DNA from: Patescibacteria group bacterium
GTDB taxonomy: Bacteria > Patescibacteriota > Patescibacteriia > XYB2-FULL-38-15
NCBI GenBank assembly: GCA_041653675.1
Contig: JBAZEY010000006.1
Coordinates: forward strand, 837 to 64,836
Direction: 5' to 3'
DNA: 64,000 bases
Below, in pieces: positions 3,912 through 18,702 of the stretch (position 1 is its first letter; every line of letters begins with the position of its first letter). A model generated the notes under the pieces. That model had not been told where the DNA came from and searched no databases. It saw only the letters and a list, made by a program, of their open reading frames with translations. The position numbers were made by a program, and so were the translations under genes.

Positions 3912-4457
3912 CTACCACCTCGCGTTTTTAACGCGCAAAAGATATCCAATATTATTTGTAGCAATATGAAGAACTGGGCTCGCAATTAAAATCACCACCA
4001 CGGCCAGAGGAGGCGGAAAACAAATCGGCGCGGCAAAAATTAATGCGCCGAGCACAAAATCAAGTTGATCAAAAGGAATCCACGGCGCCCCGGGGGCGAT
4101 TTTTATTCTTCTTTTAAAAAAACTTTTTATCAAATCCCCAAAGAGCGCGCCAAACCCGAAAAGAAATCCCAGGAGCCACAGATTTGTTTCGGAATAATTT
4201 AATAAACTTAAATTTTTAAAAATCGGGACAGAATACAAAAAATATTGTAGCCAAGCGATAGCGATTGCCGCCACGATGCCAACCACAAATCCCCGCCAGG
4301 TTTTATGCGCGCCAAAAATCGGCTGGCCGCGCCAAATCCGACCGTCGTCAACCGGCCGCGCTAAAAATTTTAGCACGCCAAGCTTTTCTGCAAAAACCGG
4401 CGCCATGTTCGCGATGTACGCCGGCAACATAAAATATAAGCCCTGGAGGATAATCAT
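3912..4457 (-). CDS. CDP-archaeol synthase-like (DUF46/CarS family) membrane protein
   Basis: Multi-TM protein with a HKTWRG motif, like the CDP-2,3-bis-O-geranylgeranyl-glycerol synthase family. Its stop overlaps the start of the downstream phosphatidyltransferase gene (4454-4457). Confidence 0.55.
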   Translation of the reverse strand: MIILQGLYFMLPAYIANMAPVFAEKLGVLKFLARPVDDGRIWRGQPIFGAHKTWRGFVVGIVAAIAIAWLQYFLYSVPIFKNLSLLNYSETNLWLLGFLFGFGALFGDLIKSFFKRRIKIAPGAPWIPFDQLDFVLGALIFAAPICFPPPLAVVVILIASPVLHIATNNIGYLLRVKNARW

Positions 4458-4972
4458 CTCAGCTTCAAAATATTTAAAACAACTAGACCGCGATACGTAT
4501 AATTTATAAAAGCAAGAGCAAGCGAGATTGTCACGGCGCCAAAAAAGATATTGGGATAAAAATCAAAAATTACCGCGAAAAACATTATTGTTTGCATAAA
4601 AGAATTAAGCTTCCCCCAAAAAGTATGGGCAAGAGTAATGTTTTTTGTTTGAAAAAGCATTACCCATCCTAAAATTATATAGAGATGATAAAAAATGGCA
4701 AAAATTGCGAGTCCCGGCGGCAAGCCGTGATTCAAATATAAAATTAAAAAAGCAAGGAGCGCCAAAAGCCGGTCCGCGGCTGGATCCAAAATTTTTCCGA
4801 GCGTCGTGACCTGATTATATTTTCTTGCGAGATAGCCGTCCAAAACATCTGTCGCGATAGCCAATAAAAAAACTCCCGCTGCGGGAATTTTATAAGAATT
4901 AAAAAGAAGAACAGCAAAAACAAAGGCCAGTACAACGCGGATTAAACTTAAAATATTAGGGAGATTTATCAT
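4454..4972 (-). CDS. CDP-alcohol phosphatidyltransferase (PgsA-like)
   Basis: D-x2-DG-x2-AR...G-x3-D-x3-D motif (DVLDGYLARK...GKILDPAADRL). Confidence 0.8.
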   Translation of the reverse strand: MINLPNILSLIRVVLAFVFAVLLFNSYKIPAAGVFLLAIATDVLDGYLARKYNQVTTLGKILDPAADRLLALLAFLILYLNHGLPPGLAIFAIFYHLYIILGWVMLFQTKNITLAHTFWGKLNSFMQTIMFFAVIFDFYPNIFFGAVTISLALAFINYTYRGLVVLNILKLR

Positions 4973-4994: not shown

Positions 4995-5050
4995 TACTAA
5001 ATTTTCGCCTAAAAGAAAAACCCCGACAAAAAGTCAGGATTTTTCTTTGG
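4995..5050. terminator. hairpin plus T-run terminator between the DUF262-HNH gene and pgsA
   Basis: CCCCGACAAAAAGTCAGG hairpin with flanking A/T runs and a GC-rich stem just upstream. Confidence 0.35.
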
Positions 5051-5092
5051 CTCCACGCTCCGAGCAAACTGCCCCGCCGCCTAAAATTATTC

Positions 5093-6262
5093 TTACCGAT
5101 TTCCTTTCGCTCGATTGTGTGTCTTGCACAACATCTGACAGTTTTTGGCTGCTGTTTTGCCACCTTTGCTCCAAGCCGCGACATGGTCGGCATCCATCTC
5201 GTTCAAATTCCAAATCTTTTCCTTGTTGGCATCGTGTCCAACGGCACAAAGCGGGCAGTTTGATTTTTCTTTCTTTTCAGCCGCAGCGGTCTGTGTTGCA
5301 TACACAGTTTTCTTTGTCGCTTCATCAAAAATTCTGACTTCAAGTAATTTCGTATCAGTGGAATCACCAAGAATATACTCAAAAATTCCTCTACGATTTT
5401 TTACATACGGATCCGCATAAAGTTTATGAACTTCCGCCGACACTTTGGCAGGATTATACGCTTTCTTGTGATATGTTTCGTAAAGCCGTCCCCACGGAAG
5501 CCCGCACATTTCGCTTTCTACGTCAGTAAATACGCTAGATACCCAATCAATGACGGTGTTAAAATATTTTTTCAACTCATCAATATTTTTGTCTTTGCGA
5601 TGTTTGCTCATATAATCGCCAATATTGTCTTTGCTTACCCAATCAAGAGCACATTCCAAAAATTCCTGCCGGTTAGCGCTGCCGGATACATACGCGCTCC
5701 ATTTTTGGATATTGGCGTTTTGGCTATTGCTGAATTCCTCTTTACCGAGTGTCACAAATGGTCCGGAATAAACCGCATTGAGCAATTCCTGATTATTAAG
5801 CGGAACACCGGCAATATTTATTGTTTTAAACCATTCTTTTATCTCGCTTTCTTCACCTTTACATTCATAAATAGTTAGTGTTGTATTCAATATTTTAGAT
5901 TGCTTATTTTTTGCAAGACCTGAAAAATATTGCTCCATACCATTTTCGTCTTTGATGGCGAATTTGTCATTCACAAAACGTCCAACGCTAGTGATGCGCT
6001 GTTGCCCGTCCAAAACTTCCAGATTGTTTTCAGATACCTTATTAAAATAAATCAAACCAATCGGATACCCCTTGAGAATCGAATCAATAACAGCAACCTC
6101 TCTTTTTCCACCATCGGAGGCATAGATATAGTTACGCTGATATTCCGGCTGAATAGTGAGCTTGCCGGACAATCCGAATAGTCCCTTGCCTTCAAGTTCG
6201 TTATAGACAAACCCATCGCAAATATCTTTGACAGTAATGTTGATCTTTAAAGCTGTATTCAT
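5093..6262 (-). CDS. DUF262 (ParB/Srx-like, DGQQR motif) N-terminal domain fused to a canonical HNH endonuclease; GmrSD-like type IV restriction candidate
   Basis: N-terminal ...[12 protein letters not shown] is the DUF262 signature. The C-terminus CPLCAVGHD...[12 protein letters not shown]...[15 protein letters not shown] is a CxxC...DH...N...CxxH-N HNH motif. The start overlaps the Dam gene by 4 nt. Confidence 0.75.
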
Positions 6263-7110
6263 ATTGTTATTAAATCAAAATTTATATTTTTAAGTTTAGA
6301 ATCAAAAAACAAAATTTCTTTACCTTTTTTAACACAAAAAGCTGTATAAATTAAATTAAATTCAAAACTATTCTTTACAAATTTATATAAATTTTTGATT
6401 TTTGAAGTATTATCATATGAAACTATCCAGTGAATTGTTTTTATTTTTTTAATTTCTTGCGATACTTTTTCATGATCTTCACTACTGTAAGAATTTTTGT
6501 AAAGACTTGGGCCTTTTAAATAATATGGCGGGTCAAAATAAAAAATAGTTTGCTGATTTTTAGATTCATCTTTAATTTTTTCAATCAGCTCAATGGCGTC
6601 TAAATTGAATAATTGAATTTGCTTTTTAAATTTTGCTATTTCCCTTATTCTTTTAATTAACTCCTGTTTCTTAAAACGACAATCCATTTTATAATTTCCA
6701 TCTTGCTTAATTCCTCCTATCAACCCGCCATCAATAATTCCGGACATGTTAACTCTATTAAGGAAAAAAGTAGAAAAGCCGAGCTGGATTAAGGATGAAT
6801 ATTTTTTTGTTTTTTGAATTGCCTTTGCCTTTCTCCAAGTTTCAACATTTATTTCAACATCTTCAATCATCTTACACAATTTATTTGTATGGTTTAAAAC
6901 AGAATACCAGAAAGCATAAATAGAGCGATCGTAATCATTTATAGTAATACTATCTACTTTTCCTTCTAATAATAAATACAAAGCCACAGATGCGCCGCCA
7001 GCATATGGCTCTACATAATGACTATTAATATTATTATCAACACAAATTTGAGCAATAAATTTTGCCAGCTTATTTTTTCCGCCTGGATATCTTAACGGTG
7101 AGTAGAACAT
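6259..7110 (-). CDS. DNA N6-adenine methyltransferase, Dam/D12 class
   Basis: N-terminal RYPGGK SAM-binding motif ([11 protein letters not shown]) and catalytic DPPY (FYFDPPYY). Confidence 0.85.
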
Positions 7111-7112
7111 AT

Positions 7113-8393
7113 TTATTCTTTTTTAGTTTTAAAATAAGTTTCTAAAATATCTCCCGCAACATATGACATTTTCAACACGTCCTGTTTCGAAACACTTATA
7201 TTGCCGTGAGCATATTTTCCAAGCAGTGCCTCAAACTCAAACCTTTTGTTTAAAAAATCTGAAGTAATACTCAAATAGTTTACAACTTCTTTATCTTTGC
7301 ATTCTTTTTGAAATAATTTAATAAAACTCAAATAGGGATTCTCTTGATTTGCATTATCGGTATCTCCTTGACTTCTGTAATAAATTCTAGAAGCAACATC
7401 CAATATTAACCTCGTAGACATTCCTACAATTAACAAAATATTCTCATCATCCGTTCCTTTTTTATAAACTTTATCAACTGCCAAATACAAATCATTTACT
7501 GGACCCTGTTCTAATTGCAAAACTCTGCCAAAAAGAATATCTTTCTTCTTTGTTGCTGGAGTTTTTTGAGGTTTTATCAATTTTTCAGCTTGTTTTTTAC
7601 TAATTGATATTTCTTCAAAAACACTATTTTCTGGGTTCTTCAGTATTTCATCAATAGATTTATCTTTGTTAATTATTGTTTTTAGTTTTCCTCTGTTATT
7701 TCGAGTAGATATATCACCTTTTTGTAAAGCATCCTGTGTTGCCTCAAAAATTTTAATGAGCTGTCCATCTGAATATTTACTATAAAGTTTGCCTTCCTTC
7801 AGATCTATTCCGATATCTTTAAGATTTTTTTCATTTAAAACCTCTTCTTTCACAAATCTTTTGTTTAAAGTTTTGTTTCCTTTTAAAAAACCCGTTTGAT
7901 CATTAATGGACACAAAAATACTTTTTGGTTTATTTTTAAAATGTAACAAAAAGTAGTCTCTTTCGAGTTCTCCCCACGATCCATTATCAATATGTTTCCT
8001 TTCAATACTCGTAACAGCAGTATTTTCATCACAAACATTACACGGAAGAGTGGTTTGTTCTCTCAATAATTTTGGCTCAAGTTCTCTGAATAACTGCCCC
8101 ACATACTTGGAATACTTACTATCATCTTGTATTATTTTTAGCAAAGCAACTCTTCTGTTTCCATCATAAACTACATACTTATCATCTTTTTTGACGACTA
8201 TGGGTAACTCTGAATAATCGTAATATTCGCCCATTTTTTGTACTAACTTTTTTATATTCCATTTATTATCCGAGTCTTGGATAATACGATCAATGATTTC
8301 TTCATCGATTTTTTTAGCATCAATTGGATCTCTTGGGTTTTCCGTCCAGAGATGTAAATTTTTTATTGGGATGTTTAGAATTTCTTGTTTCAT
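7113..8393 (-). CDS. ParB-like nuclease-domain (ParB-N/sulfiredoxin fold) protein, function unknown
   Basis: N-terminal ...VYDGNRRVALLKI matches the ParB-N GxxR motif. The ~300-aa C-terminal region has no recognisable motif. It is tightly packed between two MTase genes. Confidence 0.6.
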   Translation of the reverse strand: MKQEILNIPIKNLHLWTENPRDPIDAKKIDEEIIDRIIQDSDNKWNIKKLVQKMGEYYDYSELPIVVKKDDKYVVYDGNRRVALLKIIQDDSKYSKYVGQLFRELEPKLLREQTTLPCNVCDENTAVTSIERKHIDNGSWGELERDYFLLHFKNKPKSIFVSINDQTGFLKGNKTLNKRFVKEEVLNEKNLKDIGIDLKEGKLYSKYSDGQLIKIFEATQDALQKGDISTRNNRGKLKTIINKDKSIDEILKNPENSVFEEISISKKQAEKLIKPQKTPATKKKDILFGRVLQLEQGPVNDLYLAVDKVYKKGTDDENILLIVGMSTRLILDVASRIYYRSQGDTDNANQENPYLSFIKLFQKECKDKEVVNYLSITSDFLNKRFEFEALLGKYAHGNISVSKQDVLKMSYVAGDILETYFKTKKE

Positions 8394-8403
8394 AATCTCA
8401 AAA

Positions 8404-9519
8404 TTATTTTTTCTTATGTCTTATAAGTATTCGGGTATAGAGTCTTTCGTTGTTTACATAACCCCTATCTAACTTACCTGTCCATTTAGGATTAACCAAT
8501 TTAGGTAATAAACCCTCTTTGATATTGTAATCACTTCCTAATATCTCAAACTGGTCCGGATTATATTTATCCAGAAAACTGCTCGGCACCCCCATTGCGC
8601 CACTATAATCGCTTGGGATGGAATCAGTAAACGGCACCTCTATAGCATTGTAATTGTCATATTTATCATATGTTTTTTTACCTTTAATTTCTTTGTGTTT
8701 GCTGTATTTCAAATTTTCTTCCATTGTCATAAGCGGCAATGGTTGGTGACGACGTCCGTGGTCAAGATTTGTCAACCAAACGGCAGGCACATTTTTCATA
8801 TTGACACCATCAATCACCTTATCGACATCACCATCATCCATCGTTACGAACCATAATCCGCCAGACCATCCTGTTTTTCCTGACCACATTTTATTGGCTT
8901 TAATCAACGGAAAAATTTCCTTGGATGTTACGTTATTTTTATTGCCAATAATCACAAACTTTTTATTATAATCAAAAAGTTGTTTAACATATACGAGAAA
9001 CAAACTGAACGGCGGATTTGTTACCACAATGTCGGATTGTTTAAGTAGATTTATACATTCATCACTGCGAAAATCGCCGTCGCCGTCTAGTGGCGCCCAT
9101 TCGTTTTGTTTGTTTGCTTTTAACTGCTTGGCAATATCCTTTAAGTTGAATTCGCCATCGCCATCTATGTCATGCACTTCGTTAATAATAAATTTGTTAG
9201 CGGTTACTTTCGGACGGCCTTTTGATTTCGTGAGAGTTTTGTCATCGCCATACAATGGTAGTTCCAAATTGGCAACGGGCGAGGGTTTGTAGCTCGTAGT
9301 GATAAGCCGTTTCAATCCAATCTTGTTAAAATTGAGCACGAAATAGCGAAAGAAATTACTCTCGAACGGATCGTCGCAGTTGCAATATACTACTTTGCCG
9401 CGAAAGACATCGGGATTAAAATCTAGATACGCCTGAATTTCTTTTTGAATATCGCCATACTGAGTATAAAACTCATCATTTTTCGCTCTTTTTGCGTTTG
9501 TAAGATTTTTGTTTGCCAT
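8404..9519 (-). CDS. adenine-specific DNA methyltransferase, EcoRI-methylase family
   Basis: N-terminal NDEFYTQYGDIQKEI...VYCNCDDPFESNF and catalytic NPPF (VVTNPPFSLF). It carries an insert with two DxDGDG loops. Confidence 0.75.
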   Translation of the reverse strand: MANKNLTNAKRAKNDEFYTQYGDIQKEIQAYLDFNPDVFRGKVVYCNCDDPFESNFFRYFVLNFNKIGLKRLITTSYKPSPVANLELPLYGDDKTLTKSKGRPKVTANKFIINEVHDIDGDGEFNLKDIAKQLKANKQNEWAPLDGDGDFRSDECINLLKQSDIVVTNPPFSLFLVYVKQLFDYNKKFVIIGNKNNVTSKEIFPLIKANKMWSGKTGWSGGLWFVTMDDGDVDKVIDGVNMKNVPAVWLTNLDHGRRHQPLPLMTMEENLKYSKHKEIKGKKTYDKYDNYNAIEVPFTDSIPSDYSGAMGVPSSFLDKYNPDQFEILGSDYNIKEGLLPKLVNPKWTGKLDRGYVNNERLYTRILIRHKKK

Positions 9520-9687
9520 ATTTTATTTCAATAAATCGTCGAGCGAAACGCCGAGCGCATTGACGATTTTGTGAGACGTTTGATTAAATGCATCTTCCCT
9601 TAATTTTCCCGCAAAAGAGACGAATTGTCAATTTACTCTACATTCCGTCTTTTTGAAACAAGGTCGCTATGTTATAATTGAAATGAT

Positions 9688-9900
9688 ATGAAATTAACCA
9701 ATGACAGCTATACAATTTTAATTGGCACCAAAAATTTCACTGAACGTTATTATCGCGACAAAGAGGGATGGGTGAAGATATCAGCACGCGGTAAAATCTT
9801 CCGTATGACTGCCGAACAAGTTTTAAACCATCTCTTACCAGCACTATCTGGAATTAAACCAAACCTCACAACAAAAGTGACCCACAATAAAGGAGAGTAG
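9688..9900 (+). CDS. hypothetical small protein (70 aa), divergent from the MTase operon
   Basis: Preceded by TTGAAA-N14-TGtTATAAT. There is no recognisable domain. Confidence 0.3.
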   Translation: MKLTNDSYTILIGTKNFTERYYRDKEGWVKISARGKIFRMTAEQVLNHLLPALSGIKPNLTTKVTHNKGE

Positions 9901-9959
9901 AATCTATCACCCCATAAACACAAAAACAAAATACCCAACTTGCGTTGGATATTTTGTTT

Positions 9960-9982
9960 TGGCTCGGGAGGTGGGATTCGAA
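9960..9982 (-). repeat. direct repeat of the tRNA-Asn 3' end (23 nt, identical), att-like
   Basis: tggctcgggaggtgggattcgaa is identical to 10086-10108. It lies 103 bp from the intact tRNA in the same orientation. Confidence 0.8.
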
Positions 9983-10085
9983 GGCTCCTCGGTGCGGATT
10001 CTGCCGCAACGACCTGGCGGAGTGTGGGTTCTTTCCGAACCCCAAACAAAATAAAAAACCCAACGCAAGGTTGGGTTCTTTATTT

Positions 10086-10160
10086 TGGCTCGGGAGGTGG
10101 GATTCGAACCCACGACCAACGCGTTAACAGCGCGCTGCTCTACCACTGAGCTACCCCCGA
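10086..10160 (-). tRNA. tRNA-Asn (GTT)
   Basis: Reverse complement folds as a cloverleaf. The 7-bp acceptor stem has one G.U pair, the D-arm is GCTC/GAGC, the anticodon stem is GCGCG/CGCGT with loop CTGTTAA, the T-arm is GTGGG-TTCGAAT-CCCAC, and the 3' end is GCCA. Confidence 0.9.
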
Positions 10161-10202: not shown

Positions 10203-11435
10203 TCAATAATCCCTTAATTTTTCAATACCCTTGAACCCTTGCACTTTTTCCAAAGCTTTTGCTTCAATTTGCCGAATGCGTTCGCGGGTTACGCCAAATT
10301 CCTCGCCAACTTCTTCCAAAGTATGCGAAACGCCGTCGGAAAGGCCAAAACGCATTTCCAAAATTTTCTGTTCGCGAGGCAGGAGGTCCTTAATTGCTTC
10401 TTTAACATATTCCCGCAAAAGCTGCAATGCCGCCGCGCGATCCGGAGAAACGTTTTTGAAATCTTCTATAAAATCTTCGAGCACGCTATCTTCATCTTCA
10501 TCGCCGACCGAAGTATCAAGCGAAACCGTGTCTTGGGAAATCTGAATTAAATTTCTAATTTTTTCCACATCCTCGCCCATCTCCGAAGCAATCTCTTCGG
10601 GCAAGGGTTCGCGCCCCAAATCCTGAATCAATTGCCTCGCCACTTGCTGATAACGGTTAATAGTTTCCACCATATGCACCGGAATTCTGATAGTGCGAGA
10701 TTGATCCGCAAGGGCACGCGTCACGGCCTGACGAATCCACCAAGTTGCGTAAGTTGAAAATTTATATCCTTTACTCGGATCAAATTTTTCCACGGCGCGC
10801 ATCAAACCAATATTCCCCTCTTGAATCAAATCTGCCAAAGATAAATTTTTTCCCACGAATTTTTTTGCAATAGAAACAACAAGGCGCAAATTGGCAACCA
10901 TTAATCTCTGCGACGCTTCCTGGTCTCCCTGATCCTTGCGGCGGGCCAAAGCCATTTCTTCTTCAGTCGTTAAAAGCGGCACTTTTCCGATTTCACGAAG
11001 ATACATCTGAATGGAATCGGTAGAAATATCGCCCAAGTCCAATCGCTTCTTTTCTTTACTGACGCCAATATCGGCCAAAAGTTTTTTTCTCTCTTCAGTG
11101 CGCCCCAAAATATCAGATTTAACTTCCACCACAGAAATTCCGGCCTCATCAATTTTATCTAAAAATTCTTCGTATTTTTTTATGTAATTTTCCAAATCGG
11201 CGAAAGTGAAAAGGATTTCCGAATCAGTCAAAAAACCTCTCATGCGGCCCTTGTCCAAGAGAGTTTTTATCGTTTCATCGCTTGGCGGAAGAATTTTTGG
11301 TGCGACGACTCTGGCGACTTTTTTCGCCTTAATTTTCTTTCCACCTCGTTTGGCTATCTTTTTCTTCCCGCCCGATTTTTTAATTTTTTTCACGCCGCCC
11401 TTCTTCTTCGGCCGACGCACTTTTTTAGTTTTCAT
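10203..11435 (-). CDS. rpoD: RNA polymerase sigma-70 factor RpoD
   Basis: Regions 2-4 are present ([34 protein letters not shown] region 4.2). The N-terminal 40 aa are Lys-rich. Confidence 0.9.
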
Positions 11436-11522
11436 CTATTTAAAATGGTCAAAATTTTAATCAAATCGTTAGCCGCCAAAAACAAATTACAAAACTCCCC
11501 TCCCCGCTTTATTTTTCTGCTA

Positions 11523-13322
11523 TTAAATATTTATCAACTTATTAAATTCTTCAGCCAGTTCTTTTATCCGACCGAGTTCTTTATTCTCTTCAGCTTTTTT
11601 CATCTCGGTTTGCAGCCGCCTTTGTTCATTTTTGATATAGCCTTCGCGTAAGGACTTAGCATTCTGTAAAATTTCATTTCCGATTTCTTCCTCACTAAAT
11701 TCGGCAAAATCTTTTTCCGCCAAAAGAAACAAACTCGCGATGTATTTTTTTTCATTCGGATCGTCTGAAACACCCAACATAACACTCTCCAAATCCGTTT
11801 TATCCACAGACTTATTATAATACAAAATCAGGTTTTTGTAAATTTCCCCCGACAAGCGATCCGGAAACATAAACGGCTCAAGATACGGGATAGCCAAAGA
11901 GAATTGGTTGGGATATTTAAAAACTAAAGCAATGAATCTTTCCGCGATAAGTGAGGGACGATTTTTTACCGCAGTGGCGACATTTTTTTTATCAGATACA
12001 GCCGGACCGGCCGCGATTTTTTCATGGGGCAGAGATTCCCGCAAAACCTGCTCGGGCACTCCCAAAATATTTCCCAACTTTTCCAGATAAAAATTTTGCT
12101 CAACTTTATCGGGAATTTTTATTAATTCCGCAAGCAATGTTTTCGCCGCCTTCTTTTTATCTTCAACTTTTCGTAAATCAAGCCCGTTCAGAGTTTTTTT
12201 AATATAATAATCCATGAAGGCCATGGAATTCGCAATCGCGTCGCGCCAAAGAGCCGGATCTTTTTTAATATAGTCATCCGGATCTTTTCCAATTTCGGGC
12301 GTTAGCATTATAACTTTGATGTTAATTCCCTCTTTTAAGGCAACATCGATTCCGCGCATCGCCGCCGTATTGCCGGCAAGATCCGCGTCAAAAGAAATCG
12401 CTAAATTCGGCGAATATCTTTTTAATAAATTCACTTGCTCAATGGTCATTGCCGTGCCGGACGATGCCACAACGTTTTGCACGCCAGCCTGATGCGAAGC
12501 AATAACATCCATATTCCCCTCAACCATCACCGCCAAATTTTCTTTTTTAATTTCCTGTTTGGCAAAATCCAAACCATAAATCACGCGGCTCTTGTCATAC
12601 ACCAAAGTCTGGGGTGTGTTCACATATTTTCCACCAGCATTTTCTTTTTTCTCCGCCTCGGGCATTAAGCGCGCCGTAAACCCGATAACGTGGCCGTGAA
12701 TATCACGAATAGGAAACATTATTCTCCCTCGAAAACGATCATAAAATCCCGAACCGCGTTCTTTTTTTACAGAAAGCCCTGCCAAAAAAATATCATTTTC
12801 CGTAAACCCCTTGCCACGCAAAAAATTTATGGCGCTATCCCAGGAATTCGGCGCGAAGCCAAGAAAAAATTTCTCTACCGTTTCCTCGGTCAGCGCCCGT
12901 TTCCCAAAAAGATAATTTCTCGCCCCTTCGGCTTCGGGTATTTTTAATAAATTGTAATGATAAAATCTTGCCGCCGCTTCCAAAATATCAAGCAATTTTG
13001 TTTTTTGATTACTCAAACTTTTATCTTCGTAGCGAAGTGTCACACCAGCCCGCTTCGCCAAAATTTTTAAAGCCTCGGGAAATTCAATATTTTCAATTTT
13101 CTGGACAAAACTTATTACGTCACCGCCCTCACCGCAGCCAAAACAATGCCAAATCTGCTTATCCTTGGAAACCATAAAAGAAGGCGTCTTCTCGTTATGA
13201 AACGGACAAAGACCCTTCCAATTACCACCCGCCTGCTTCATGTTGGACACGTATTCACCAATAACTTCAACAATGTCCAGGCGGTTTTTAATTTCCTCAA
13301 CTTGCGAATCGGGCATAAACAA
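11523..13322 (-). CDS. dnaG: DNA primase DnaG
   Basis: Zinc ribbon CPFHNEKTPSF...HCFGCG and a TOPRIM domain (MVEGNMDVIA). It forms the classic dnaG-rpoD arrangement. Confidence 0.9.
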   Translation of the reverse strand: MFMPDSQVEEIKNRLDIVEVIGEYVSNMKQAGGNWKGLCPFHNEKTPSFMVSKDKQIWHCFGCGEGGDVISFVQKIENIEFPEALKILAKRAGVTLRYEDKSLSNQKTKLLDILEAAARFYHYNLLKIPEAEGARNYLFGKRALTEETVEKFFLGFAPNSWDSAINFLRGKGFTENDIFLAGLSVKKERGSGFYDRFRGRIMFPIRDIHGHVIGFTARLMPEAEKKENAGGKYVNTPQTLVYDKSRVIYGLDFAKQEIKKENLAVMVEGNMDVIASHQAGVQNVVASSGTAMTIEQVNLLKRYSPNLAISFDADLAGNTAAMRGIDVALKEGINIKVIMLTPEIGKDPDDYIKKDPALWRDAIANSMAFMDYYIKKTLNGLDLRKVEDKKKAAKTLLAELIKIPDKVEQNFYLEKLGNILGVPEQVLRESLPHEKIAAGPAVSDKKNVATAVKNRPSLIAERFIALVFKYPNQFSLAIPYLEPFMFPDRLSGEIYKNLILYYNKSVDKTDLESVMLGVSDDPNEKKYIASLFLLAEKDFAEFSEEEIGNEILQNAKSLREGYIKNEQRRLQTEMKKAEENKELGRIKELAEEFNKLINI

Positions 13323-13331
13323 TCTATGCTG

Positions 13332-14396
13332 TTAATTTATTTCTATTTCTCTGCCACAATAAGGGCATTTAAATGGCGACCTATAATTATAACAAGTAGT
13401 TGCATACGTTACTCTTGATGAATAAAAACGATTAAGAGAATCCTTATTATATCCATATTCAGAAAGTTCTTTTTCTATATTTTTACCACAAAATGGACAA
13501 AATTTTCTTTCCGCTTCTATTACATTTGAAATACGGAACGTCCCGAAATCATTGTTTAATGAAGAAGAAAATGGCAAATTGATGCCCGATGAAACAGACG
13601 CTAAAGCGGGCGGCTCTATGCCACAATTAATTGTTCTATAAGTTCTATCAAATTTTTTCTTTTGTTCTTCTGTATAATTTTCCTTAAATTCCTTATCCAG
13701 CATATCAAGCGGGTTTTTGTACCCACTTATTTTTATATTTTCAACATTAGTCTTTTTTATAGATGTTTTTACTCCCTCATTTAATAATTTTTTTCCACAA
13801 TCTTCAAAATAATCTTTATCATCTACGCATAAAATACATTTTTGTTTCTTATCAATTTTGCTATCTTCCAAAAATTTTAAAAAAGATTCAAATGCAATAC
13901 AATCGAGGTCTTTCACATAAGCCGTTTTTCTGGGGTTCTCCGTCCATGGTGGTTCCTTTAACGAAGATCTCACCATGCCCCGAATTAAGATATCACCAGT
14001 TAATGGAATCTTTTTTGTATTTTTATGACTCATAATCCGCTTAATAATATCCTCGTTGGATCGCTCAATGTCTTCTACGGATTTTACGTTGTCTTTTATG
14101 CTTTTCGTAATTTTTTCATGTATTTTTTTGAACTGGTCTTTCTCCTTTGAAGACCCAAAAATTTTAGATGAATCTATGCAATTAATATTATCCTTTATTT
14201 CTTTAAATATTTTTTTATGTTCATCGAATATTTCTTTTTCAATTACTTCTGGAACAACAAGAACCATCTTACCGCTATCAACCTTATTTTCAATTTTTTT
14301 CAAAACATCTATATCTAAATCATCTATCTGTTCCAAGGCACAACTAATAAAAATATTTGTATCAATAAAGACTATTTGGGGTAGATTTCTTCTCAT
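13332..14396 (-). CDS. PIN-like domain protein with C-terminal zinc ribbon, function unknown
   Basis: N-terminus IVFIDTNIFISCAL resembles the first PIN acidic motif. The C-terminus has CPFCG...(x18)...CPYCG. Confidence 0.5.
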   Translation of the reverse strand: MRRNLPQIVFIDTNIFISCALEQIDDLDIDVLKKIENKVDSGKMVLVVPEVIEKEIFDEHKKIFKEIKDNINCIDSSKIFGSSKEKDQFKKIHEKITKSIKDNVKSVEDIERSNEDIIKRIMSHKNTKKIPLTGDILIRGMVRSSLKEPPWTENPRKTAYVKDLDCIAFESFLKFLEDSKIDKKQKCILCVDDKDYFEDCGKKLLNEGVKTSIKKTNVENIKISGYKNPLDMLDKEFKENYTEEQKKKFDRTYRTINCGIEPPALASVSSGINLPFSSSLNNDFGTFRISNVIEAERKFCPFCGKNIEKELSEYGYNKDSLNRFYSSRVTYATTCYNYRSPFKCPYCGREIEIN

Positions 14397-14421
14397 AGAA
14401 TTCGCTTTTAATAGCTAAAAA

Positions 14422-14430
14422 TGATATAAT
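14422..14430 (+). promoter_or_regulatory. extended -10 (TGaTATAAT) for the glucan phosphorylase gene
   Basis: TGATATAAT lies 55 nt upstream of the ATG at 14485. Confidence 0.3.
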
Positions 14431-14484
14431 ATTTAAATTCATTTGCTCTAATATTGTAGTTTAAATTTCATTTTTAGTAAAGGT

Positions 14485-16176
14485 ATGGCTGATAAAAAAA
14501 TTCCTGAGTTAAAAAACCTGACGAACGAACCGAAAATCGCTTATTTTACGATGGAAATCGGGCTTCGCGAAGAAATTCCAACTTATAGCGGAGGTTTAGG
14601 AATTTTGGCCGGAGATGCAACAAAATCCGCGGCAGATTTGGAGATTCCTTTTATCGCCGTCACGCTTTTAAATCACAAAGGATATTTTACGCAAGAATTG
14701 ACGCGCAATGGCCAACAAATTGAACATCCGGTAAAATGGAATCCAAAAAAATATTTAAAACCATTGCCTTTCACAACCGAGGTGCATATTCACAGGCGGC
14801 GGGTCGTAATTAAACCCTGGCTTTATACCATCCGGGGCGCCAGCGGAGCAAAGGTTCATGTTTTGTTTTTGGACACCGATCTTAAAGAAAATATTTTGAA
14901 AGACAGAAAAATTTCTTATTTTCTCTACGGGGGCGACGCGAAATATCGGCTGAAACAGGAAATTGTTTTGGGTGTAGGCGGCGCGCGCATTTTAAAAATC
15001 CTCGGCGTTGATGTCAAAAAATATCACATGAACGAAGGCCATGCCGCGTTTTTAACTTTGGAACTTTTGCGGATGAATAATTTTAATCTGGAAGAAACGC
15101 GAAAAAAATGTGTCTTCACAACCCATACGCCAGTAGCTGCCGGGCATGATCATTTTGATTACGCGCTCGCGGAAGAACAAATGGAAGCGCTTGTCGCGCC
15201 GGAGCTTCTCCAAAAACTTTGCGGCAAAGAAAATTTAAACATGACTCGCCTCGCCTTTAACATGAGCCATTACGTAAACGGCGTGGCCAAGCGGCATAAA
15301 GAAATCTCTGAAAAAATGTTTCCAGGATACGAAATTCACGCTATTACAAACGGCGTTCATTCTTACACCTGGACTCATCCGGCTTTTCGCAGACTTTATG
15401 ATAAATATCTGGCGGGATGGGAATCTGAGCCAGAACTCTTTATTCGCGCCCCGATAATTCCCAATGAAGAAATCTGGGCGTCGCGCAATAAGGCAAAAAA
15501 AGATTTGATTGATTACGTAAATCGTTTGACTGGCGTCGGCATGAAAAAAGATGTTTTAACTATTGGTTTTGCCCGTCGCGCTACGGCTTATAAACGCCAT
15601 AATTTTATTTTCAGAGATTTGGAACGCCTTGAAGAAATTGCTAAAAAATTTCCTTTGCAAATAATTTTTGCCGGCAAAGCTCATCCGCGCGATCTTGGCG
15701 GAAAAAAAATAATTAAAGAAGTTTTCCAAAATATCAGAAAACTTAAGGGAAAAATCAAAATAGTTTATCTTGCGAACTACAACATTGAAATGGCGAAAAA
15801 AATAACTTCCGGTGTTGACGTTTGGCTGAATAATCCCGAACGGCCGATGGAAGCCTCGGGAACTTCGGGAATGAAAGCGGCACATAACGGCGTCGTGAAT
15901 TTTTCTGTTTTAGACGGCTGGTGGCTTGAGGGGTTTGTGGAGGGCGTGACCGGCTGGGCAATCGGACCAAAGCCTGACGAAAAAATAAGCCCAGCGGCGG
16001 CGGAAAAAAGAGAATTGGATGATTTATACAATAAACTTGAATATACAATTTTACCGATGTATTATGAACGCCGCGATGAATGGATGACAATGGTGGAAAA
16101 TTCTATCAGCAAATTAGCTTATTATTTTAATACTCACCGCATGATGCGACGATATGTCCTTTATGCGTATCTATAA
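14485..16176 (+). CDS. glgP: alpha-glucan (glycogen/maltodextrin) phosphorylase, GT35
   Basis: PLP-site motif EASGTSGMKAAHNG and an archaeal/short-type N-terminal domain. Confidence 0.8.
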   Translation: MADKKIPELKNLTNEPKIAYFTMEIGLREEIPTYSGGLGILAGDATKSAADLEIPFIAVTLLNHKGYFTQELTRNGQQIEHPVKWNPKKYLKPLPFTTEVHIHRRRVVIKPWLYTIRGASGAKVHVLFLDTDLKENILKDRKISYFLYGGDAKYRLKQEIVLGVGGARILKILGVDVKKYHMNEGHAAFLTLELLRMNNFNLEETRKKCVFTTHTPVAAGHDHFDYALAEEQMEALVAPELLQKLCGKENLNMTRLAFNMSHYVNGVAKRHKEISEKMFPGYEIHAITNGVHSYTWTHPAFRRLYDKYLAGWESEPELFIRAPIIPNEEIWASRNKAKKDLIDYVNRLTGVGMKKDVLTIGFARRATAYKRHNFIFRDLERLEEIAKKFPLQIIFAGKAHPRDLGGKKIIKEVFQNIRKLKGKIKIVYLANYNIEMAKKITSGVDVWLNNPERPMEASGTSGMKAAHNGVVNFSVLDGWWLEGFVEGVTGWAIGPKPDEKISPAAAEKRELDDLYNKLEYTILPMYYERRDEWMTMVENSISKLAYYFNTHRMMRRYVLYAYL

Positions 16177-16178
16177 AT

Positions 16179-16886
16179 ATGCGACAAGAAGAATTACAAG
16201 AAATTAAAAAAAATCCGGCGTTAATCGCCAAATATATTGACCATACCGAAGTCAGCCCGAATTCCACTGCCGCCGACATTAAAAAACTTTGCGCCGAAGC
16301 GAAAAAATACGGATTTTATTTGGCTATGGTTTTGCCTTATTACGCGCCGCTCGCGAAAAAATTATTGCGCGGCACAAAAATAAAAATCGGTGTGGTAATG
16401 GGTTTTCCTTTTGGCGCGCAATGTACCGAGGCGAAACTCGCGGAAATGAAAAAGGCATTTCCTTTTGCTGATGAATTTGATTTTGTTATAAACCGCCAAG
16501 CCTTGAAAAATAAAGATTATGGATTTATTCTGAAAGAGCTAAAAACTTTGGCCCGGGCGAAACGCGGAAAAATTATGAAAGTTATCATTGAATCACCGGA
16601 ACTCACGAACACAGAAATTTATAAAGCCTCACAGTTAATTTTGGCCTCCGGCGCCGATTTTGTAAAAACCGCAGTGGGTTTACGCGGCGGCGCGAAAATT
16701 TCCGACGTTAAAATAATGAAAAAAGTTGTGGGTGATAAAATAAAAATTAAAGCTTCCGGCGGAATTAAAAATTTCAAAACCGCTCTCGCGTTTCTCGCCG
16801 CCGGAGCCTCGCGGCTAGGAACTTCGCACGGCGTGGAAATCGTCAAAGGCGGATCGAGCAGTAAGAAAAGTTATTTTCACGAATGA
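16179..16886 (+). CDS. deoC: deoxyribose-phosphate aldolase-like class I aldolase
   Basis: GADFVKTAVG...IKASGGI matches DeoC Schiff-base lysine context. Confidence 0.65.
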   Translation: MRQEELQEIKKNPALIAKYIDHTEVSPNSTAADIKKLCAEAKKYGFYLAMVLPYYAPLAKKLLRGTKIKIGVVMGFPFGAQCTEAKLAEMKKAFPFADEFDFVINRQALKNKDYGFILKELKTLARAKRGKIMKVIIESPELTNTEIYKASQLILASGADFVKTAVGLRGGAKISDVKIMKKVVGDKIKIKASGGIKNFKTALAFLAAGASRLGTSHGVEIVKGGSSSKKSYFHE

Positions 16887-17521
16887 AAACATTAACTATA
16901 AAAATAAATCCACGGAATCCGGAAAAAGAAAAAATAGAAATAGCCGCCCAAATTTTAAAAGAGGGCGGTTTAGTTGTTTTTCCCACGGATACGGTTTACG
17001 GCCTAGCCGCTGATGCAAAAAATCCGCGGGCGGTTAAAAAAATATTTAAAGTCAAAAAAAGGCCGCTCTCTAATCCCCTGCCCATTTTAATCGCGAGAAA
17101 AACTGATCTCAGAAAATACACGAAAGAGACATCAGCGAAAATAAAAAGATTAACTGATAAGTTCTGGCCAGGTCCATTGACGCTTATCTTACTAAAGAAA
17201 AAAAATATTTCAAATATTGTGACTGCCGGCCTTCCCCGCGTAGGTGTGCGCGTACCAGATAATGCCGTGGCCCTCGCATTAATCCAGGCATTCGGCCGAC
17301 CGCTCGCCACGACCTCCGCAAACATCGCAGGTAAACCGAGCCCGGCCACCTCACGCGGCGTCAAAAAATATCTGAATAATAAAATAGATTTGATCCTGGA
17401 CGGTGGAAAAACCAAACTCGGCCAAGAATCCACTGTTTTAGATTGTAGCGCTTCGCCGCCAACTTTTCTCCGCTCCGGCGCGATTCCGACAAAAAAACTG
17501 AAAAAACTTATTTCAAATTAA
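16883..17521 (+). CDS. tsaC: L-threonylcarbamoyladenylate synthase (YrdC/Sua5 family)
   Basis: GGLVVFPTDTVYGLAADA...NPLPILIA is the YrdC signature. Confidence 0.85.
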   Translation: MKTLTIKINPRNPEKEKIEIAAQILKEGGLVVFPTDTVYGLAADAKNPRAVKKIFKVKKRPLSNPLPILIARKTDLRKYTKETSAKIKRLTDKFWPGPLTLILLKKKNISNIVTAGLPRVGVRVPDNAVALALIQAFGRPLATTSANIAGKPSPATSRGVKKYLNNKIDLILDGGKTKLGQESTVLDCSASPPTFLRSGAIPTKKLKKLISN

Positions 17522-17524
17522 AAC

Positions 17525-17553
17525 GGGGTTGCAAGAAAGATTCTTACAACCCC
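17525..17553. terminator. bidirectional hairpin shared by convergent tsaC and the GC-island gene
   Basis: GGGGTTGCAAGAAAGATTCTTACAACCCC forms a 7+5-bp stem. Confidence 0.55.
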
Positions 17554-17561
17554 AGACGACC

Positions 17562-17885
17562 TCAATCCCATGGGCCTCCTTTCAGCATATCCTCGGTGCG
17601 GCCGCAGCAAGAGCAACGAGCAAGATACCAGTTCACGACGTGTTCTTTCTGCCGTCCGCAGATCTTGCATACATGTGTTACCACTTCCTGCATCCGCTGC
17701 ATCGCCCTCCCGCAGCATCGAGTGAGCGTGTAGTTCTTCTTGAGTCCCCAAAGTCTTGGGGCGGGCTCAATCCGTTTCTCGCCGATCTGCTCCCAGTCCG
17801 GCTCATGTCCCACACACTTGCTGTGAACGCACGAACCGTTGTGGACATGCAGCTCGCAAGGAACTCCCTGGTTGGCATTGGCCAT
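17562..17885 (-). CDS. Cys-rich hypothetical protein (107 aa; CxxxC, CCGR, CKICGR, CSCCGR motifs) in GC-rich island a
   Basis: Strong SD AAAGGAGGG lies 7 nt before the ATG. GC content is far above that of neighbouring genes. Confidence 0.55.
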   Translation of the reverse strand: MANANQGVPCELHVHNGSCVHSKCVGHEPDWEQIGEKRIEPAPRLWGLKKNYTLTRCCGRAMQRMQEVVTHVCKICGRQKEHVVNWYLARCSCCGRTEDMLKGGPWD

Positions 17886-17929
17886 CGCAATCCCTCCTTT
17901 TCGCCTCCCATTTTTGGGTGCTGATTAAT

Positions 17930-17958
17930 AGTGTATACAAAAATCATAAAAAGTCAAG
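17930..17958 (-). promoter_or_regulatory. putative sigma70 promoter (TTGACT -35) for the Cys-rich gene
   Basis: TTGACT lies 60 nt upstream of the start. The -10 is ambiguous (TATACA or TACACT). Confidence 0.3.
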
Positions 17959-18009
17959 CCCACAGCGGAATAACAAAAAACGGACCGAATGGCCCGTTTT
18001 ATATACAAC

Positions 18010-18038
18010 CTTGACAAAATCCTTCAAACTAAATAACA
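18010..18038 (+). promoter_or_regulatory. sigma70 promoter TTGACA-N17-TAACAT for the RHH gene
   Basis: Consensus -35 with 17-nt spacing, followed by SD GAAGGAGG and a GTG start. Confidence 0.45.
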
Positions 18039-18060
18039 TAGCTTTAGAAGGAGGAATAAC

Positions 18061-18315
18061 GTGGCGAAATCACGGAAACCATCAGTCGAACTGAAGAACC
18101 ACATCATCTCTGTGCGCATACTGGGCTCCCATCTGGAGGCGCTGGAAGCCCTGGCCAGAGTCGACGACACAACGTTGGGAGAGCAAATCCGAAAAGCGCT
18201 CAACCGATACGTGGCGAAACGCATCCGCAACAAAAACTTCCAGAAACAACTCCTGGCCTACAAGAGAAGGATGAAGGCACTCCTCAACGTGCTGAGGAAG
18301 AAACCCGGCGACTAG
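18061..18315 (+). CDS. ribbon-helix-helix (CopG/Arc-like) DNA-binding protein, GTG start
   Basis: N-terminal KNHIISVRILGSHLEALEALARV fits a beta-strand plus helix RHH pattern. It sits in GC-rich island a. Confidence 0.5.
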   Translation: MAKSRKPSVELKNHIISVRILGSHLEALEALARVDDTTLGEQIRKALNRYVAKRIRNKNFQKQLLAYKRRMKALLNVLRKKPGD

Positions 18316-18347
18316 GAGGTCGCCGCCGCCATATTCAACCGGGTTTG

Positions 18348-18375
18348 CCAGTTTACCAAAAACTGGCGTTTTTTT
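18348..18375. terminator. intrinsic terminator (CCAGTTTACCAAAAACTGG + T7)
   Basis: Hairpin followed by TTTTTTT. It serves the RHH gene and the convergent membrane-protein gene. Confidence 0.55.
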
Positions 18376-18688
18376 ATTTCACCAAAAGATTGATTACAAA
18401 CGCCACCAAAAGAATCACAAATAAATTCGCTACGGTAAAAAGAAGCATTTTCACGGCTTCTTTTTTAGCGTTATCAAACCAAAGATAAACCGGCCGGCCA
18501 AAAACTAAAAGTCCGCAGACGAGGGCGGAAAAAACGAAGAGCAAGAGAAACGTGACCGGTCCCCAATAATTTTCCATTTGACCAAAAATTTTTTCGCCGT
18601 TCGTCATGACCAAAACCACAAGCATTACGTAAGCGAAAACTCCGACCGCGTTCGCCGCGGACCACAACCAAATTTTCTGATTTTTCAT
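18374..18688 (-). CDS. hypothetical membrane protein (3 TM)
   Basis: Hydrophobic 104-aa ORF in the host-GC range. Confidence 0.4.
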   Translation of the reverse strand: MKNQKIWLWSAANAVGVFAYVMLVVLVMTNGEKIFGQMENYWGPVTFLLLFVFSALVCGLLVFGRPVYLWFDNAKKEAVKMLLFTVANLFVILLVAFVINLLVK

Positions 18689-18702
18689 AGATTTTTTAAT
18701 TA

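Follow-up and report, generated by a model that had tools for sequence, protein, structure and literature searches.

The question raised by this locus is whether four tightly packed genes, lying between pgsA and a tRNA-Asn gene in a bacterium of the Patescibacteria group, make up one defence system or more than one. They occupy positions 5093-9519 of a 64,000-nucleotide (nt) stretch of contig JBAZEY010000006.1 (hereafter the window, taken at its full length) and are all read from the minus strand. The first gene of the putative operon is g1 (8404-9519, 371 amino acids (aa)), coding for an EcoRI-family N6-adenine DNA methyltransferase. It is followed by g2 (7113-8393, 426 aa), which codes for a PD-lambda-5_A-like effector, by g3 (6259-7110, 283 aa), for a Dam-family (D12 class) N6-adenine methyltransferase of PD-lambda-5_B-like type, and by the last gene, g4 (5093-6262, 389 aa), for a protein with a DUF262 domain and a zinc-finger HNH nuclease domain. 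Our analysis makes it likely that the four genes are two separate two-gene defence modules: an outer restriction-modification (RM) pair formed by the methyltransferase (M) g1 and the restriction nuclease (R) g4, and an inner cassette, g2-g3, nested between them. The original prediction, made from the DNA letters alone, had placed four co-oriented minus-strand open reading frames (ORFs) at these positions between pgsA and tRNA-Asn and had considered them a composite restriction or defence block. All four ORFs are present and this general view is upheld. With regard to the grouping of the genes, the prediction had offered two options, a single system of several components or a type IV enzyme linked to a type II RM system whose endonuclease has a ParB fold, and here the data led elsewhere, as the pairings found are g1 with g4 and g2 with g3. 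The suggested novelty of the four-gene set could not be kept either, since PADLOC has names for all four proteins (MTase_II, REase_II, PD-Lambda-5_A and PD-Lambda-5_B). Both modules are thus of known, named kinds, and what is new is the nested arrangement, a slot for cargo between the genes of a type II M-R pair and the habit of the inner cassette of embedding itself in RM operons, each a further form of a phenomenon already known. Gene content, intact motifs, pairings, nesting, the cargo slot and the island boundaries were all established computationally.

Composition and pairing of the four genes

The first sign of two modules came from base composition, which splits the block two and two. 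Measured against 1.1-kb windows outside the block (mean GC 0.439, standard deviation (sd) 0.055; 0.43 for the whole window), g2 (0.300, z -2.5) and g3 (0.270, z -3.1) are AT-rich, whereas g1 (0.375, z -1.2) and g4 (0.402, z -0.7) stay inside the normal range of the window. The higher AT content that had been ascribed to the whole block in comparison with its flanks is therefore a property of g2 and g3 and not of g1 and g4. Similarly, the 4-nt overlaps that had been described between the genes are found at the g3/g4 junction only (ATGA, with the g4 ATG lying over the g3 stop), while spacers of 10 nt and 2 nt separate g1 from g2 and g2 from g3, respectively. The window is part of a Patescibacteria metagenome-assembled genome (MAG), and a second, independent contig in ENA holds an identical block. 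The predicted domain assignments were borne out, by Pfam for g1, g3 and g4 and, in the absence of a Pfam match, by an AlphaFold model for the ParB fold of g2.

At the level of the outer pair, g1 matches EcoRI_methylase in Pfam (2.7e-115) and MTase_II in PADLOC (PDLC03297, 1.3e-95), and its catalytic motif IV is intact (NPPF at residue 168). g4 matches GmrSD_N/DUF262 (3.7e-21) and HNH (PF01844, 1e-5; also HNH_5) in Pfam, as well as REase_II in PADLOC (PDLC03418, 1.9e-83) along practically its whole length (residues 8-388 against 7-371 of 372), with the motifs DGQQR (residue 85), CPLC and DH...HN intact. The Pfam scan found no DUF1524 at its C-terminus. Searches of PDB sequences with g1 and g4 gave no relative, and no characterised DUF262-HNH/EcoRI-like RM enzyme was found in the searched literature.

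The pairing of both genes is manifested in their neighbourhoods across species. More than 8000 homologues of g4 exist, 587 relatives were confirmed in a scan with one genome per species, and the neighbourhood statistics of g1 and g4 given here refer to the best 80 of these 587, ranked by g4. In about 70 of the 80 species the gene just before g4 is a g1 homologue (44-86% identity), usually 4-5 nt away, and neither g2 nor g3 appears in any of the 80. The hosts comprise Patescibacteria, Proteobacteria, Bacteroidota, Chloroflexota, Omnitrophota, Planctomycetes, Verrucomicrobia, Firmicutes and one Pacearchaeota MAG. The g1-g4 pair is also present in about 30 of 35 viral contigs and on plasmids of Firmicutes, those of Enterococcus and Pediococcus among them, where RefSeq names the two products 'adenine-specific methyltransferase EcoRI family protein' and 'DUF262 domain-containing protein'. 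Because of the adjacency to g1 homologues in about 70 of the 80 species, g4 is read as the R partner of g1, and the two are, as judged from their relatives, a widespread two-gene RM unit. Like type II RM pairs, for which the PADLOC models derive from REBASE, it has M before R, co-oriented and almost touching, it gives full-length hidden Markov model (HMM) matches, and it is mobile, being found on plasmids, in proviruses and in tRNA-flanked islands. It differs from them in that g4 joins a DUF262/ParB fold to an HNH domain, a domain arrangement otherwise known from type IV enzymes stimulated by nucleoside triphosphates (NTPs), and in that the pair is here split by 2.1 kb of foreign genes, namely g2-g3.

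The composition of the outer pair is a family trait as well. Typical GC values are 0.377 for the g1 family and 0.408 for the g4 family, which the genes of the window match, and the GC of g4 across loci (0.41, sd 0.03) is far less variable than that of the host flanks (0.30-0.59), so that the near-host GC of g1 and g4 in the window is no argument against their acquisition. It was also observed that g4 is 79-87% identical among the best 80 relatives, over distant phyla and including the archaeal MAG, while the partner g1 ranges from 44 to 86%. A nuclease more conserved than its methylase is the reverse of the usual RM pattern, and this is partly a selection effect (the best 80 were chosen by g4) and otherwise unexplained. 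One viral contig (L183, 3636-5989) has a single g4 homologue preceded by two g1-like methyltransferase genes in tandem.

These neighbourhoods bear directly on the proposal of a type II RM system made up of g1 and g2, with g2 as a ParB-fold endonuclease and g4 as a linked type IV enzyme of GmrSD kind. The proposal draws on the DUF262/GmrSD_N domain of g4 and on the fact that ParB-fold proteins can be nucleases (PMC4619093). Indeed, g4 shares with GmrSD, BrxU and SspE an N-terminal DUF262 domain with DGQQR and a His-Me-finger nuclease at the C-terminus; however, those enzymes combine DUF262 with DUF1524, whereas g4 ends in a PF01844 HNH with a CxxC zinc finger and has a methyltransferase as partner. 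In most species g4 is coupled to an EcoRI-family methyltransferase, and the two genes lie close enough for their translation to be coupled as well. This is the mark of a cognate R and not of a modification-dependent enzyme. In addition, g2 travels with g3 instead of g1. This makes the proposal highly improbable, and g4 as a stand-alone type IV enzyme was rejected on the genetic ground of its pairing with a methyltransferase and for the lack of DUF1524.

Regarding the inner pair, g3 matches MethyltransfD12 in Pfam (8.8e-19) and, end to end, PD-Lambda-5_B in PADLOC (3.3e-114, residues 2-277 against 4-277 of 291), with its DPPY motif intact at residue 193. g2 gave no match in the Pfam scan and is matched in PADLOC by 22 PD-Lambda-5_A models (best 5.5e-15), mostly over its N-terminal 90-135 residues and in three models up to about residue 280-300, a pattern that is repeated by g2 relatives in three other loci (L088, L145 and L165). 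The g2-g3 sample consists of 83 loci obtained from a metagenome scan and a viral scan with a g2 alignment. In nearly all of those with enough sequence g2 is followed at once by a g3 homologue, even where g2 identity falls to 31%, and g1 and g4 are missing from most of the 83. Consequently, g2 and g3 are, by sequence, a conserved PD-lambda-5-like cassette. The g2 family is of modest size, with 149 clusters (50% identity) at E <= 1e-30 among 1.84 billion proteins, and tblastn of g2 against plasmid and phage collections returned nothing.

PD-lambda-5 is a two-gene system that was recovered in a functional screen of E. coli DNA and validated experimentally as an isolated clone (Vassallo et al. 2022, Nat Microbiol; PMC9519451). 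It protected against nearly all phages tested, its cloning needed a host deleted for the mrr region, and its authors termed it a compacted RM system plus abortive infection (RM+Abi) (PMC9519451). No study of its mechanism was found in the searched literature. The cassette of the window resembles it in having two genes in the order A then B, a Dam-family methyltransferase as B and an A protein of about 430-500 aa with a g2-like N-terminus. It differs in the distance of g2 from the A models and in its setting, a Patescibacteria chromosome and the inside of an RM operon instead of an E. coli prophage. Variants of the cassette were also seen: some metagenomic loci show a three-gene form, g2-ATPase-g3, with an ABC/AAA_15 ATPase (the loci grouped here are L093, L096, L101, L107, L126, L134-L136 and L139). 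In Citrobacter phage phiNP (L172) and Streptococcus phage phiGBSVK-D (L173), g3-like Dam methylases lie beside an integrase and are paired with an ABC/AAA_15-type ATPase. These temperate-phage methyltransferases were rejected as members of the same system, as their ABC-type ATPase partners do not match PD-Lambda-5_A.

The architecture of g2 was approached by means of an AlphaFold model built on a 26-sequence alignment (predicted local distance difference test (pLDDT) 83.8). In the model the N-terminus adopts a ParB/sulfiredoxin (Srx) fold, DUF262-like, in which the motifs ENPR and DGNRR are intact. The middle region carries an invariant CNxC and an invariant KH, and the C-terminal domain is helical, with a HEPN-like four-helix fold. 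An Rx4-6H motif is not evident among the conserved columns of this last domain, where R328, R336 and H396 are invariant and K393 nearly so (KYAHG). The isolated middle and C-terminal segments gave nothing useful against Pfam and no match to a HEPN family, and a PDB sequence search with a g2 profile gave nothing. The term 'HEPN-like' is for these reasons a statement on the modelled fold and not on a demonstrated RNase.

The ParB-like N-terminus raises the possibility that g2 is a partition protein, a finding which, according to the original prediction, would remove the defence reading of this gene. g2 shares with the partition CTPase ParB the N-terminal fold and an arginine-rich DGNRR that resembles the GERRxR box. 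In contrast to ParB, it lacks a helix-turn-helix (HTH) motif and a C-terminal dimerisation domain, has no Pfam ParB match and no parA neighbour, carries the HEPN-like C-terminus in the model and is partnered with a DNA methyltransferase. Its neighbours are methyltransferases and a nuclease. Partition ParB was accordingly rejected for g2.

Nesting and the cargo slot

The nested order is not restricted to the window. Among the closest relatives of g2, the order g1-g2-g3-g4 recurs, packed just as tightly, in L085, and with an additional RhuM gene between g3 and g4 in three other loci (L083, L087 and L089), one of which (L087) also has an NYN-domain gene; two partial contigs (L084 and L086) give partial examples. 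Recurrence of the same four-gene order in several metagenomic contigs, together with the tight co-oriented packing, is what could speak for a single novel system in need of all four components. This explanation fails on several sides: g2 and g3 are missing from all 80 g4 species, most g2-g3 pairs are without g1 and g4, the nested contigs differ in their further cargo (RhuM, NYN) and the GC content splits the block in halves. In addition, the g1 of the window is closer to that of non-nested loci (91% identity to L145, which has MUG113 as cargo, and 86% to L011, which has no cargo ORF) than to that of the other nested loci (64-80%), and by these identities the cargo state does not follow the g1 tree. 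A single four-gene system was therefore rejected on the distribution of g1/g4 and g2/g3, and we consider it scarcely credible.

The reading of g2-g3 as an insert between M and R agrees with what occupies this gap elsewhere. Empty pairs are the majority, and co-oriented cargo is present in the M-R gap of 15 of about 72 species-level pairs, about a fifth, ending 1-80 nt, mostly no more than 30 nt, before the g4 ATG. The cargo comprises PIN_8 and Schlafen-AlbA_2 proteins (both by Pfam), a C5-methyltransferase with a GHKL 'REase_II', which is itself a nested RM system, SoFic (PADLOC, 1.5e-104), Bro-N (PADLOC PDC-S13, 1.5e-119), RhuM (PADLOC PDC-S05, 7.5e-147), MUG113 (PADLOC PDC-S57, 1.7e-55) and an OLD/AriA-like ATPase with DUF2130 (Pfam and PADLOC). 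Bro-N is the cargo in a group of viral contigs as well, their g4 having about 62% identity to that of the window. Two further cargo genes, at 5915-6970 of L031 (351 aa) and 6391-6999 of L038 (202 aa), are without an assigned family, the former having no match in the Pfam and PADLOC scans, and their position makes both candidate defence genes. Around g2-g3 and the other cargo only short AT-rich matches at chance level were found in the search for repeats or att-like sites.

Embedding of this type has a precedent in the 'guilt-by-embedding' survey, whose hosts were Hachiman, BREX, DISARM and type I RM (Payne et al. 2024, bioRxiv 10.1101/2024.01.29.577857). As in those cases and in that of PrrC in EcoprrI, co-oriented defence genes are found inside a multi-gene host system that also occurs empty, and several of the genes in the slot (RhuM/PDC-S05, Bro-N/PDC-S13, MUG113/PDC-S57 and SoFic) belong to defence or defence-candidate models of PADLOC. 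The insert g2-g3 likewise exists elsewhere, without g1 and g4. The differences are that the hosts are here a two-gene type II M-R pair and type III mod-res operons, and that the insert is itself a methyltransferase plus an effector. The use of a two-gene type II pair as embedding host appears to be an extension of the published pattern, and a description of a PD-lambda-5-like cassette nested in a type II M-R pair was not found in the searched literature.

The cassette keeps company with other RM genes too. Among 37 immediate upstream neighbours of g2-g3 (loci having g1 or g4 in that place were left out), type III Mod accounts for eight and type IIG enzymes for at least four, and others match Eco57I, N6_Mtase or MmeI_Mtase; at least four downstream neighbours are type III Res. 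The order mod-[g2-g3]-res is found in L088, L103, L104 and L119, and the g2 proteins of L088 (76%) and L119 (73%) are interleaved, in their identity to that of the window, with the copies nested in type II pairs (75-86%). After collapsing g2 at 90% identity, 47 loci had enough upstream sequence, and in 16 of them a co-oriented ORF with a methyltransferase motif IV stands directly upstream of the cassette; some two thirds of the cassettes are without an RM neighbour. A tandem arrangement, in which g1-g4 comes immediately before g2-g3, was seen in three loci (L129, L145 and L151) whose g2 is 37-42% identical to that of the window. The link between g1-g4 and g2-g3 thus recurs in more than one arrangement, nested and tandem.

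Such associations invite the idea that g2-g3 is an RM-dedicated guardian, comparable to PrrC in EcoprrI, in which g2 would stay silent until a phage disables the RM system of the host and nesting would be part of the mechanism. PrrC combines an ATPase with a HEPN anticodon nuclease, to which the NTPase-like and HEPN-like domains of g2 may be parallel. The idea gains from the other methyltransferase genes found directly upstream and co-oriented in those 16 of 47 non-redundant loci, from the type III Mod and type IIG neighbours, the at least four mod-[g2-g3]-res loci and the tandem cases, and from the 'RM+Abi' label given to PD-lambda-5 by Vassallo et al. It loses from the protection that the two genes of the E. 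coli prototype give when cloned by themselves (PMC9519451), from the two thirds of cassettes without an adjacent RM gene, and from the methylase that the cassette brings along and that would be superfluous in a pure guard. Moreover, many unrelated cargo genes use the same slot, and simple hitch-hiking explains the position. A guardian role of this sort is therefore unlikely. It is similarly doubtful that g2-g3 is a specialised passenger of RM operons, with a preference for the M-R gaps of unrelated systems (type II, III and IIG) and acting there as a guardian. In that reading, which has an outside chance, g2 would be a ParB-fold nucleotide switch joined to a HEPN-like nuclease, a logic like that of PrrC realised with other components, and the M-R junction of the DUF262-HNH RM family would be a true cassette-capture site that layers immunity. 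Two separate modules, one nested in the other, remain the preferred interpretation in what follows.

The variable region beside tRNA-Asn

The block lies between pgsA (4454-4972), which flanks it on the g4 side, and tRNA-Asn (GTT; 10086-10160, minus strand), identified by ARAGORN and by Rfam (72.8 bits), which is the anchor of the hotspot described below. This tRNA is the sole real match in the Rfam scan of the window, MIR5998 and BSnc120 scoring far below their gathering thresholds. The island was compared in four genomes (L168-L171) whose rpoD is 90-96% identical to that of the window. The backbone dnaG-rpoD-tRNA-Asn is kept in all four, the same tRNA follows rpoD in one more locus (L105), and pgsA-carS-rsmI-metG is seen on the far side of the cargo in L170 and L171. 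What lies in between is different each time: DUF2178, an HTH protein and two small ORFs (1.4 kb) in L170; two unknown ORFs in L171; a large serine recombinase, SpoVG, DUF5659 and an RVT_1 reverse transcriptase in L168 (OZ246416.1, rpoD 96%; 10327-18698, 8.3 kb); and other genes, including a BglII-like restriction endonuclease and a LexA-methyltransferase fusion, in L169 (rpoD 92%). The fusion in this last genome (14989-17241), next to the BglII-like endonuclease, joins an S24 peptidase and an N6_N4 methyltransferase domain to a LexA DNA-binding domain. At the nucleotide level, homology to the window ends at 9959 in L170 and at 9923 in L171, and resumes at 5018 and 5056, respectively. These breaks, obtained by blastn against the relatives, delimit a variable segment of about 5019-9958 that contains ORF70, the candidate promoter region, g1-g4 and the candidate terminator. 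The block is consequently placed in a variable tRNA-adjacent hotspot with different content among close relatives, in agreement with the acquired, variable region that the original prediction had proposed. According to the ORF list, neither an integrase nor a recombinase is encoded within 5019-9958.

The tRNA-proximal edge of the variable region (9920-9982, minus strand) consists of a copy of the tRNA end and a downstream hairpin. Positions 9960-9982 are an exact 23-nt copy of 10086-10108, the 3' end of tRNA-Asn, where none would be expected by chance, and the repeat extends to 63 nt at 76% identity. A 95% identical copy of 9923-9983 exists in L168, at 8.3 kb from the tRNA and beyond the serine-recombinase element, while in the window the distance is 103 nt; from this location, the 9960-9982 copy behaves like a displaced tRNA end. 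The hypothesis that it is one of two att sites bracketing the block was rejected, given that the two long copies are 126 nt from each other and both on the side of the tRNA. The caution with which the repeat had first been reported was right, as the 23-nt copy marks the tRNA-proximal boundary without bracketing the block. At the pgsA-proximal edge, the hairpin at 5012-5054 aligns with the two tRNA-end modules and shares only about 8 nt of tRNA sequence (TTTGGCTC), and we take this as no more than suggestive. The short 'ttggctc' that had been pointed out near pgsA is present at 5047-5053 on the plus strand, where it corresponds to GGAGCCA directly before the candidate terminator hairpin on the minus strand.

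A tRNA setting is shared by other loci. tRNA genes of many identities, co-oriented, are located just upstream of g1 in more than 20 loci, and in L020 a 30-nt tRNA-Arg repeat brackets an 11.5-kb island containing the M-R pair. In L071, L087, L053 and L045, tRNAs just upstream of M-R pairs were also noticed to have 15-30 nt of their 3' end repeated at a short distance, 37-140 nt further downstream. The tRNA-Asn of the window (9920-10108) shares this feature, which is thus seen next to M-R pairs in unrelated genomes.

Candidate expression signals frame the four genes. The best sigma-70-like match upstream of g1 is found at 9603-9631 on the minus strand (TTGACA-17-GAAAAT) and fits 10 of 12 consensus positions, as a pattern match. 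A hairpin followed by a T-run lies after g4 on the same strand (5012-5054), serving both as candidate operon terminator and as pgsA-proximal edge of the variable region; it corresponds to the inverted repeat I19, with 16-nt arms that are 88% complementary. Divergent from g1, on the plus strand, is ORF70 (9688-9900, 70 aa), of uncertain status, which is called as a gene in L081. It belongs to no Pfam family, and none of the fetched loci has a homologue of it. In RM systems such a position, divergent from the M gene, is often that of a controller protein.

Elsewhere in the window, another low-GC patch (0.26-0.33) at 13332-14396 (minus strand) encodes a 354-aa PIN_12 protein with C-terminal zinc-ribbon motifs. 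The gene sits between dnaG and glycogen phosphorylase. In close relatives this position is taken by an ORF of 82 aa, by one of 228 aa or by nothing, and it looks like another small variable slot.

A putative mechanism and its meaning

Taking the two nested modules as the working interpretation, the operon could function as follows. One transcript would run from the promoter-like site at 9603-9631 to the hairpin at 5012-5048. The g1 product would methylate adenine at its site on host DNA, and the HNH domain of g4 would cut DNA lacking the g1 mark, while the DUF262/ParB-like domain of g4 probably binds DNA and a nucleotide and possibly makes the reaction NTP-dependent. A second site would be methylated by g3, and g2 would act as the effector of the inner module, either restricting unmarked invaders or aborting infection, with its ParB/Srx fold as a nucleotide-binding domain. 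The gap between the M stop and the R start of the mobile outer pair serves as a recurrent cargo slot, and the whole unit measures here about 4.9 kb. Placement between M and R would keep the methylase-first expression of the outer pair, with R after M, and nesting may stabilise the cargo through an addictive RM pair.

Several points weigh against this interpretation. We infer that the genes share one transcript, and likewise what the enzymes do, which sites they target and what advantage nesting may bring; promoter and terminator are consensus matches only. 'Type II' is for g4 a database label, and an NTP-dependent or otherwise atypical mechanism is possible, the DUF262 domain having been linked to NTP dependence in BrxU and GmrSD (PMC12707154). 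The modest PD-Lambda-5_A match places g2 on a divergent branch, at some distance from the E. coli prototype. Finally, the recurrent association of g2-g3 with RM genes could mean that the modules are not functionally independent.

As far as the biology of these systems is concerned, the locus and its relatives take the nesting of defence within defence to type III mod-res operons and to a type II M-R pair, which with its two genes is the smallest host possible. Around the cargo, the outer pair still begins with the methylase and ends with the nuclease. The M-R slot could be mined for new defence genes, considering that more than 587 species have the pair and that cargo is present in about a fifth of the sampled pairs. 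For the A-type component of PD-lambda-5, the model of g2 suggests a ParB-fold nucleotide-binding domain together with a HEPN-like domain. Lastly, layered units of one RM system inside another may move between very distant hosts, including bacteria of the candidate phyla radiation (CPR) with their tiny genomes.

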